Below are positions 40,001 to 43,000 of a DNA stretch of 64,000 nucleotides, one piece after another. Source of the DNA: Tubiluchus corallicola. Taxonomy: Eukaryota > Animalia > Priapulida. Position numbers and translations under genes: made by a program. Position 1 is the first letter of the stretch; every line of letters starts with the position of its first letter. The stretch covers positions 310,001 through 374,000 of the forward strand of contig JAQGDQ010000204.1 of the NCBI GenBank assembly GCA_030141605.1, given 5' to 3'. The notes under the pieces are model-generated. The model had not been told where the DNA came from and searched no databases. It was given only the letters and a program-made list of their open reading frames with translations.

Positions 40001-43000
40001 GCTAGACCAATAACAGCCTGAAAATGCAGCGTAGAATAAGGTACTCCAATGGTTGAATTCTTCCCTCAGGTCTCCCACATATTTCAGAAAGCAAAGATTG
40101 CAAGACAAGGTGCTGTGTGACATTAGCTATGAAACATAAAATGTTACAAATTTTGAATTGGCATTTTCAAGTTTTTAAGTTCGAGTTGGCTGATTGTTTC
40201 ACAAATTATGACTGGATTGTATAGCTTATCCACATTTCTGCTGATCACCATGCATTTGAAAAACACTTGAGGCATTCCAACGTTGAAAAACAAGCAAAAT
40301 TCAACTTTTTATAATATTTATTTAATGTAACACACTTTTAAAAAGCCAATTTTATACTTCAGATGTTCCCAACTCTTCTATGCTAAATTATCTGTTTCTG
40401 CCATTAACTGAAACAGGGGCTGATGTGCAGTTATATTAACTTCCATGATTATTGTTTTGTTAGTTTGACTCTGATAACACATGATCAGTGATTACCTTTA
40501 ATGACAATTAACGGCGTGGTCAGTATTTTGTTTTATTTATCCATTGCAGTCCTATTTTAAGAGCCTTTTTTTCACTATTATTGCTTTTGAAATAAAGATG
40601 GGTTTATGTGATAGCAATTCAAACCTACAGGACAAACTAGTCTTTAAACAGACTCTAGAGCCATACATGTCTTCCTTGGTCTCTTATTAACAATAGTTAT
40701 AAAGACCATTAGATATTAGTAAAAGTTAAATGCTAATCACAATAATCGGCAGTTTTGCTTGCATTAATGGAGGACAGTACTATAGATAATTTTATAGCAT
40801 ATCTTTCTAGAATGCATAAATTAAATGTCACATTTTCATATATTCTGTATATATTGCTGCTGGCTAACATTTCGGTAACGCATAATAATGTTCAATTCTT
40901 CTTAACCTTTGTAAAATTATGTCTTGAAAGATTGTCAGTATTGCTCCAGCTAGTATTTCTGTAATCCTGTGCAATCAATAGTTAATCAGTCTGACGTCAA
41001 GCTTTTTGCTAATGTCACAGTAAATGAAAAGCTAATCATGCTGTCACTGGGTCGTTAATAAGTAGGTGCATTACAGTTATCTGATATGTGTACTCATTTC
41101 CACGTATATTACTGAATAAGAGATACAGGTAAATTAATTAGTTAGATTAGTTCTTATTCGTGTAGCTTGGGCAGATAGAAACTTGCTAATAAATGTATCA
41201 ACCAGGGCACCTTTCCAGCAACTGATTATTTATCGACCAACAAACGGTTCTTAAGGGTTGTACTTACACAGTGCAGTGTGTAGAATAGTTTGGAATTGTA
41301 GTACAGGTCAGCTTAGAAAACCATTGGAAACCTTGGTTGTTAGATATAGTTGTCTTTGCTGGCTATGATTGTAATATTCTTAGTTTTATATCTCTAGCAA
41401 CCTAATTTTTTTCATAATGATGACTGGCCATGTAAACCTTTCCCTGTACTTCATGTAGTCACACTTACAGAACGGATTCTTCTACAATTACCTTAATTAT
41501 CAATTTTAGACATAAAGACTGTTTTGTACATTTAATACGTACATTTCTGCAGGTTTATAAATCAACTTAGTTTGGACTTGTTACATATGTAGATCTATGT
41601 TCAGTATTCAAAATGATGTTCAAAGTTTAATCCAGCTGTTTCACTGGTACAAACTAATTCACAAAAGTTCCTTTTGTTTTGTAGTGTAATAGCGGGCTCG
41701 GTATGTTTTTGTCAGTATTTAGTTAGTTCTGATACAAAGCACATTTGCTACATGTGTCATAGAGGATCATAAGTATCAGTACGGAGGCCAGTTTTTCTAT
41801 CATTAAGTACTAAAATTCTGTTTCAGGATGCAAGAAAAGCAGCTTGTGATACCTCGCTCACCGCTGCCACAGCAAATATGGACCAAGTCGGTCGGATACA
41901 AATGCGTACTCGACGCACACTTAGAGGACATCTTGCCAAGATATATGCCATGCATTGGGGTTCAGATTCACGGTAACAACAGTTTTACAAACTAATACTA
42001 ACAGCTTTAAGTTACTAGCTTGAAAAGTTTTACGTACAGTACTTCAGTGTAATCATAACATTAAGCAGCTGACTGTACAGATTTTCTTAGTCCATTTGAC
42101 TAGTTCTGTATATTAGCTTCTTTCCTTTTCACTTAGCAATATTGTTTGACTGAATAAATGCTCTAATGTCCTTTCCTTGCCCTTTACACAGCAATTGCTG
42201 CAAACAATGTTGCAAAATTCTCTTATTAAGTGATGATACAATCTGGTTTGTTAGTACGTCATGTAATATTTTACCTTGTTGTGATTGATAATTTATGCAA
42301 TTTACATGCACCTCCGAAGGTGTGTTCGCTATTTAGCAATACAGTGGTTCTTCTGTAAATCCTCTGGAATATCGGAGGATATTTATAATTATTAACAAAA
42401 CTGAATACTTATTTTTCACTCATAATTAAAGAATGTATGACTGTACTGCGCATGGCAAGCTATGTCTGCATTGATGTAATCTGCCTAAAGAAAATGCTTT
42501 TTTATTTACAGAAATTTAGTATCAGCTTCACAGGATGGTAAATTAATAGTGTGGGATTCGTATTCGGGCAATAAGGTGAGCGAGTGTGTGTGCGCGTATT
42601 TGTCAGCTATGTCTATGTGTTTGCTTTTCGTTTCAGGTATTTGGTATCAGCATCACAAGATGGTAAATTAATAGTGTGGGATGTAATAACAACTAACAAG
42701 GTAAGCGTGCGGTGAAGCCTTACTAATACTGTTTCCATTAACATTCGTCGGTTTTTGTTGTGTGTGATGCTAACAGCGTTGTCTGCATGTACAGCAACAG
42801 TATGTTTAGAATAGTTTATGTTAGATTAGAGGATGGTAAATATTTGTGGTGCAGGATCCCATTATAGACCGGCCATTAATCTTCTCCAAGCAGGACAGGT
42901 GGCCGTGCTGGAAGAGCCTGAGCCGATTAGTATTTGGAGCATGTGCTGCATGCCCAAGAATTTTTATTTCCCTGCGAAAACCAGCTACCCTATTAAGTTT

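Follow-up and report, generated by a model that had tools for sequence, protein, structure and literature searches.

Can a single gene supply more than one form of G-beta, the G-protein subunit that is among the most conserved of animal proteins, and whose rule of pairing with G-gamma, together with the effect of that pairing, is a long-standing question? The issue is raised by a 64,000-nucleotide (nt) stretch of the priapulid Tubiluchus corallicola (contig JAQGDQ010000204.1, positions 310,001 to 374,000), referred to here as the window and numbered from its first letter. Its + strand carries a complete canonical G-beta gene in which the third coding exon occurs twice in tandem, as 3a (42512..42575) and 3b (42637..42700). 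The best overall explanation, which we regard as probable, is that the tandem copies are spliced one at a time; this would give two G-betas of equal length, distinguished by residue 69 and by the loop of residues 84-87, in blade 1 of the propeller. A sequence-only reading of the window had proposed such either/or use.

The 3a/3b pair

Both copies lie on the + strand, are 64 nt long and encode residues 68-89 (numbered as in human G-beta1, via PDB alignment), 3a with N69 and S84-Y85-S86-G87, and 3b with Y69 and V84-I85-T86-T87. A UG-rich GT-AG intron of 61 nt (42576..42636, + strand) separates them. The coordinates, lengths and open frames given in the sequence-only reading were confirmed on the sequence, and its junction coordinates, 41972 at the end of exon 2 and 52059 at the start of exon 4, agree with our reading of the splice ends. 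The acceptors and donors, which had been called good, are so in both copies (ttacag/GTGAGC for 3a, tttcag/GTAAGC for 3b); the match of the donors to the U1 consensus and the pyrimidine content of the acceptors fall within the range of constitutive exons. Both copies run from phase 2 to phase 0 with AG/GT ends. As neighbouring homologues that share length, frame and splice pattern, they have the sequence hallmarks of exclusive exons born by tandem duplication (PMC5740500).

The reading frame leaves little room for other arrangements. As had been anticipated, including both copies or neither shifts the frame: the 3a+3b form stops at codon 100 and the skipped form at codon 81, and either/or use is therefore likely. 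Retention of the 61-nt intron would bring a stop at codon 122.

The two copies agree at 47 of 64 bases and differ at 17. Counted over the whole exon, 7.5 silent changes fall on 13.8 sites and 8.5 replacements on 49.2 sites, a ratio of replacement to silent rates (dN/dS) of about 0.20 (Fisher p=0.004), which bears out the earlier claim of purifying selection on both copies. Within the 14-codon core, 3 silent changes on 9.3 sites stand against 0 replacements on 32.7 sites (Fisher p=0.007). The sequence-only reading had pointed to three silent changes in the core, all of which are present, and a fourth is found at Asn88. All replacements are confined to residue 69 and to residues 84-87 (N/Y69, SYSG/VITT), the four differences outside these codons being silent. 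None of the simulated neutral copies (0/20000, at either divergence tried) retained AG, GT, frame and the 14-residue core. To judge from the sequence, 3a and 3b are a real, selected tandem duplication of one G-beta exon, and we think it very probable that both copies are live and mutually exclusive.

The pair had also been described as each keeping a different half of the WDSYTTNK motif. The description fits, but Ser86 occurs commonly in nature (SYST in 73 of the 336 proteins with the exon 3 motif in our comparison set, a redundant one in which insects, copepods and rotifers are well represented), and the departures from the norm lie mainly in Gly87 of 3a and in Val84-Ile85 of 3b.

No further copy of the exon 3 peptide motif was found in the six frames of the window. 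Local alignment to 3a points to a possible decayed third copy at 42815..42880 (+ strand), with no acceptor and a broken frame; its score against 3a was reached by 0/500 shuffles and 1/115 window tiles, while against 3b the alignment was not significant (35/500 shuffles and 13/115 tiles). The downstream flanks of 3a and 3b lack similarity, and the 61 nt upstream of each copy are slightly alike, as acceptors are (2/500 shuffles).

The gene and its duplicated last exon

The gene was delimited by tblastn with homologues and by reading splice ends, aided by contigs from X1, a relative (75 differing letters in 1388 nt of 3´ untranslated region, UTR) whose RNA nature is presumed and whose joints cross GT-AG introns. 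Coding exon 1, with the start codon, occupies 34020..34079, and an X1 contig joins its end to exon 2 (41827..41972, 146 nt), the upstream partner of 3a and 3b, which X1 record 1 also supports. Coding exons 4-8 are present in a single copy each (52059-52137, 52346-52496, 52893-53022, 54080-54151 and 55031-55247), and the joints of exon (e) 5 to 6, 6 to 7 and 7 to 8 (e5-e6, e6-e7, e7-e8) are found, with GT..AG introns, in X1 contigs. All exons lie on the + strand. The encoded protein is a canonical G-beta of the G-beta1-4 type, a class with an open reading frame (ORF) of about 340 residues, an N-terminal helix, seven WD repeats and about 85-90% identity to G-beta1-type proteins; the top PDB matches of exon 5 are G-beta2 and G-beta1 chains. 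The best homologue matches the full-length ORF with 309 identities (91% identical), and no full-length close orthologue was found in the homologue searches.

By tblastn only two exons of the gene are doubled, exon 3 and the last exon, the second of which is absent from the sequence-only reading. Exon 9a (57905..58044, + strand; coding part 57905-58011) provides an alternative C-terminus, with its stop at 58009-58011 and a donor 33 nt past the stop; the coding part of exon 9b (58668..58774, + strand) is followed by the 3´ UTR. X1 contigs contain the joints 55246>57904 (e8-9a), 58046>58670 (9a-9b) and 55249>58670 (e8-9b), which re-read on the window give introns of 2657, 623 and 3420 nt, respectively, with GT..AG ends. 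One contig links e8, 9a and 9b in order, placing this doubled pair within one gene. Both routes, e8>9b and e8>9a>9b, are thus present in the relative, and 9a, a cassette that brings its own stop, is spliced onto 9b and turns it into UTR. The donor of the 623-nt intron is GTTTAC. Junction-dependent decay follows a 50-55-nt rule, by which the 9a stop, only 33 nt before the last junction, would escape it.

The two ends differ at five residues, T309, E322, Y325, L327 and R337 in 9a and A309, D322, T325, V327 and K337 in 9b. Their divergence amounts to 20.75 silent changes on 22.5 sites, which is saturated, and 8.25 replacements on 79.5 sites. All four combinations of 3a or 3b with 9a or 9b yield an ORF of 341 residues.

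What the swap may change in the protein

An alignment-based model of a 340-residue homologue (predicted local distance difference test, pLDDT, 93; a single-sequence fold gave 55) matches G-beta1 chains with a template modelling (TM) score of about 0.95. In this model residues 84-87 form the loop between strands 78-83 and 88-94, and residues 321-326 the loop preceding strand 327-331. Ser84, Tyr85, Met325, Ala326 and Asn340 of G-beta are residues that we take to line the pocket for the C-terminal Asn-Pro-Phe motif of G-gamma. Going by G-beta1/G-gamma structures, the 84-87 loop and residues 322-327 would share one face of blades 1 and 7, where together they would grip this motif. The conserved G-gamma Phe is described as sitting in a hydrophobic G-beta pocket and affecting membrane affinity and signalling (PMC8351738), and a prenyl pocket as lying between blades 6 and 7 (PMC8961292). 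The swap may then tune G-gamma preference or membrane attachment rather than contact with G-alpha, and we incline, if only slightly, to the view that it acts mainly on the G-gamma side.

The residues that vary are normally well kept. Position 85 is aromatic in 330 of the 336 motif-bearing proteins, from which Ile85 of 3b departs; Gly87 of 3a replaces a residue kept in 331 of the 336; and position 325 is Met in 276 of 301 proteins. A tyrosine stands at 85 in 3a (Ile85 in 3b) and at 325 in 9a (Thr325 in 9b). Near precedents for the loops exist in distant G-betas, P0079 for 3a and P0489 for 3b, and both loops are therefore plausible folds. Long WD40 proteins dominated the results of a profile search against 1.84 billion representatives; the motif was present in 7 of the 145 proteins newly added from it, one of the seven not being a G-beta.

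The sequence-only reading had directed attention elsewhere, to K78, I80 and K89, which contact the N-terminal helix of G-alpha. The segment does adjoin these residues, but the pointer misleads a little: K78, I80 and K89, like N88, are the same in both copies. It is nevertheless possible, if on balance doubtful, that the exons are live and exclusive and that the swap tunes contacts with the G-alpha N-terminal helix, receptor or effectors and not the G-gamma pocket. This alternative shares the splicing model preferred here and differs from it in the target surface only. It gains from the 84-87 loop running straight into Asn88-Lys89, and from human disease variants in the corresponding exon region, which change the regulation of GIRK (PMC10232839); the identity of K78, I80, N88 and K89 in 3a and 3b counts against it.

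A more ambitious version of the pocket model joins the two duplications. In this scheme, 3a with 9b would combine Tyr85 with the small Thr325, whereas 3b with 9a would set Tyr325 (with Leu327) facing Ile85, a shared RBFOX-type switch selecting 3b and 9a jointly. Coupling of 3b to 9a is a tentative proposal, and it is somewhat less likely again that one gene rebuilds its G-gamma-binding pocket by choosing jointly at two duplicated exons separated by 15 kb. Among 231 proteins with both sites, the sole Tyr325 protein is one of the two Ile85 proteins, and both Ile85 proteins have Leu327, a pattern that would fit reciprocal repacking of one pocket. Three points count against the coupling: Met325-Val327 is retained in a Val85 protein; common descent may account for the shared states of the two Ile85 proteins, which are distant; and no transcript was seen that phases 3a or 3b with 9a or 9b. 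If the coupling is real, a single gene would achieve a G-gamma selectivity for which vertebrates employ several G-beta genes.

Probable use of one copy at a time

Exclusive use of 3a and 3b would be explained best by a partial steric block imposed by the cramped 61-nt intron, with decay of frameshifted messages as a back-up. Candidate branch adenosines are found in this intron at positions 23, 30, 34 and 40 from the 3a donor, all of them below the 50-nt donor-to-branch-point mark applied to human clusters (PMC5740500); the intron itself exceeds the mark of about 40 nt below which C. elegans introns are taken as unspliceable (PMC4165533). We regard a steric block between 3a and 3b as plausible.

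The choice between copies may further be regulated by tissue through UGCAUG and UG-rich elements. Two TGCATG hexamers, possible RBFOX sites, stand past 3b at 42784 and 42947 (42784..42952, + strand), and three follow 9a, among 13 in the gene span. Five of the 13 fall within 500 nt after the donors of 3b or 9a (binomial p about 1e-4), and only two of the 13 when the distance is set at 300 nt (p=0.04), both windows having been chosen after looking; of the others, three closely precede constitutive exons and one precedes 9a. UGCAUG is present in the flanking introns of 11 of 29 C. elegans exclusive clusters (PMC4165533), and its placement here is a lead toward RBFOX-type control.

Two other devices were considered and rejected. 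An incompatibility of the U12/U2 type is at odds with donors that are all ordinary GT(A/G) U2-type. A docker/selector RNA pairing of the Dscam kind was suggested by an intron element at 42264-42285 complementary to 3b, but the pairing is no better than that of shuffles, of which 36/60 paired as well with 3a and 24/60 with 3b. Nor was an unusual local fold found around the pair: its fold is poorer than that of the shuffles, 200/200 of which fold as well.

The X1 contigs have little to say about exon 3. Depth is zero in the bin that holds 3a and 3b, where conserved sequence may have been filtered, so this is no evidence either way. Record 1 shows 0 differences to exon 2, extends back across the junction with exon 1 and stops at the final base of exon 2, where a fork in the assembly graph would break it; this is a weak hint of a choice between 3a and 3b. 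A joint at 41969>52063 was considered as skipping of exon 3 and rejected, because silent differences are clustered in the contig of matching depth, which most likely represents a second G-beta gene. Over window positions 41875-55034 the X1 contigs do include a second G-beta transcript, diverged at many silent sites, from either a paralogue or another organism.

The proposal of two live copies in either/or use is backed by selection and by frame, and several observations weigh against it. Among the contigs of the two runs covered, X1 included, none was listed with a joint to 3a or 3b; contigs show presence and not absence. The putative fork could equally mean 3a versus a retained intron, or use of an orphan acceptor in intron 2 (described below), and other records end mid-exon. 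Neither loop (SYSG, VITT) occurs among the 336 motif-bearing proteins or in the homologue searches and cluster look-ups. A second exon 3 copy was found in 0 of 11 metagenome loci, six of which include both flanking exons, and the pair is therefore not general among animals. The core has a dS of about 0.4, below that of the exon tail, which gene conversion could also cause. Finally, no passage on the presumed contact between residues 85 and 325 (Tyr85/Met325) was found in the literature searched.

Some of these points would be accommodated if one copy worked while the other were recently dead or barely used, its apparent conservation reflecting recent loss of function or gene conversion. The contigs list no joint to either copy; the core contains a long identical run, with its low dS; Ile85 and Gly87 replace residues kept in about 98% of proteins; and the possible decayed third copy adjoins the pair. 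We nevertheless consider a single working copy improbable, since the four differences outside codons 69 and 84-87 are all silent, the splice sites of both copies score like constitutive ones, no neutral simulation kept the features of the pair, and the sister pair 9a/9b is used both ways.

It is less probable still that both copies are live but form mainly an expression switch acting through decay, with residue changes that are nearly neutral. A 61-nt intron is spliceable in short-intron animals (PMC4165533), the double-inclusion and skipped forms both stop early, and an exon with a stop could begin at the orphan acceptor of intron 2; on the other hand, a switch of this kind has no need of a replacement-free 14-residue core in the second copy. 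That two haplotypes or paralogous genes were collapsed in tandem during assembly is hardly credible: the second, more diverged G-beta transcript in X1 means that paralogues exist in the group or sample, but 3a and 3b differ by 27% and their downstream flanks are unrelated, doubling affects just two exons of the gene, and the X1 contig with e8, 9a and 9b in order confirms the other doubled pair in one gene. Tandem copies spliced one at a time remain the account that we prefer.

Relatives and the exon 2/exon 3 junction

In a protein tree of 42 rows, built without invertebrate deuterostomes, the window protein groups, unresolved, with arthropods and a tardigrade, and the spiralians form a supported clade that excludes it; the Priapulus fragment described next was not included. 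This fragment, from Priapulus caudatus (XP_014673053.1, P0628), equals the window protein at 146 of 153 residues overall and is the closest of 501 proteins compared over residues 188-305 (113/118; the next has 110). It has a 9a-type end, with Thr309, Phe325, Leu327 and Arg337 and 33 of 35 residues equal to 9a; exon 3 lies outside its 153 residues. This one gene would by itself suggest a source among priapulids or other scalidophorans.

Alternative exon use close to exon 3 is annotated within single genes of other invertebrates. Isoforms X3 and X4 of Eurytemora (XP_023346256.1 and XP_023346257.1; P0553/P0554) differ by an exon choice that adjoins exon 3, but the swap covers residues 21-67 only, those of the preceding exon, as a duplicated exon 2 would give. 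In Periplaneta and Cryptotermes, isoforms X1 and X2 likewise come from one gene, and what sets the two apart in Periplaneta is three extra residues where exon 2 meets exon 3, residues 68-89 being unswapped. An insert of 1-8 residues at this junction is carried by 54 of 285 proteins. Such inserts were seen in insects, mites, copepods, molluscs, brachiopods and rotifers (P0011/P0525, P0155, P0158, P0231, P0555, P0606), and in Periplaneta and Eurytemora the insert is annotated as an isoform difference. The alignments suggest that the e2/e3 junction is a widely shared microexon site, on which the literature search found no paper.

In the abalone Haliotis rufescens, G-beta isoform X2 (XP_046326149.1; P0161) has S69, F85 and C87 among its differences from other molluscan G-betas; all three sit in exon 3, at positions that vary between 3a and 3b. 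A duplicated exon 3 in abalone is a guess, and such a duplication, if present, would probably be an independent event, because the window protein is no member of the spiralian clade in the protein tree. The idea of an old RN/RY exon pair in common with chelicerates or molluscs was also considered and rejected, since no species has both forms among the members listed.

Intron 2 and other features of the window

Intron 2 contains a strong orphan acceptor (42191/42192, + strand), with a branch-like motif at -26 and 84% pyrimidine, that could open a candidate exon at 42192..42319. The filter that picked it out passes six sites in the gene, two of which are real acceptors. The longest candidate exon would carry a stop; no donor lies 9 or 12 nt past the acceptor, and no in-frame microexon of 3-15 nt with a good donor was found in intron 2. 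The acceptor sits in the intron where many invertebrate G-betas have an insert of 1-5 residues, and the first codons after it would read Asn-Cys, like the insert of P0108. It may be a decayed microexon or a stop-carrying exon.

Elsewhere, positions 1-7230 (+ strand) hold exons of a cytosolic phospholipase A2-type gene (PF01735 at 2-235, 2483-2689 and 6937-7227), and 14378-15241 (- strand) a HAD-family hydrolase (PF00702), HDHD3/Reg-2-like, in a single open frame of 288 codons. Broken pieces of retroelements of the long interspersed nuclear element (LINE) type are found at 37506-39388 and 18059-19874 (both - strand), with a reverse transcriptase match (PF00078) at 37506-38120, inside intron 1 of the G-beta gene. 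There is a long (TC)n microsatellite at about 11700-12070 and a short (CA)n at 57156-57215.

Significance and comparison with known systems

It seems likely that a signalling protein which normally hardly varies is made here in several forms by one gene. The natural variants, up to four of them, would differ at 10 positions, five in exon 3 and five in the last exon, on an otherwise identical background, and the pocket of blades 1 and 7 could readily be probed with them in a 2x2 design. About 75% of GNB1 encephalopathy variants fall in two human exons, one of which corresponds to exon 3 (PMC10232839). Together with the copepod and insect isoforms, the pair shows that alternative splicing has recurred in this part of the gene in invertebrates.

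Duplication or exclusive splicing of G-beta exon 3 was not found in the literature searched, whose coverage leaves out subscription journals and bioRxiv supplements. Among the names asked of a human catalogue, GNAO1 is listed and GNB1, GNB2, GNB4 and GNB5 are not (PMC8373072); in a second catalogue the names asked turned up G-alpha-q of the fly but no G-beta (PMC9741552). The splicing device is well known, and its use for this G-beta exon was not found described. The C. elegans pairs egl-15 5A/5B and let-2 9/10 (PMC4165533) share with 3a/3b homologous neighbouring exons, a short spacer, decay as a back-up (presumed for 3a/3b) and UGCAUG in the flanking introns, but the blocked introns there are shorter than 40 nt, as against 61 nt here. 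Similar in operation are the duplicated exclusive exons of G-alpha genes, which include exons 7/8 of GNAO, in amphioxus exon 6 of preGNAI, exon 5 of preGNAQ and the last exons of preGNAS, and exon 4 of fish GNAQ/GNA11 (PMC5896119). In these genes, as here, local exon duplication has swapped an interface lineage by lineage, C-terminal swaps included; those genes encode G-alpha, whereas this one encodes G-beta, which would thus join the G-protein genes that diversify by exon duplication.

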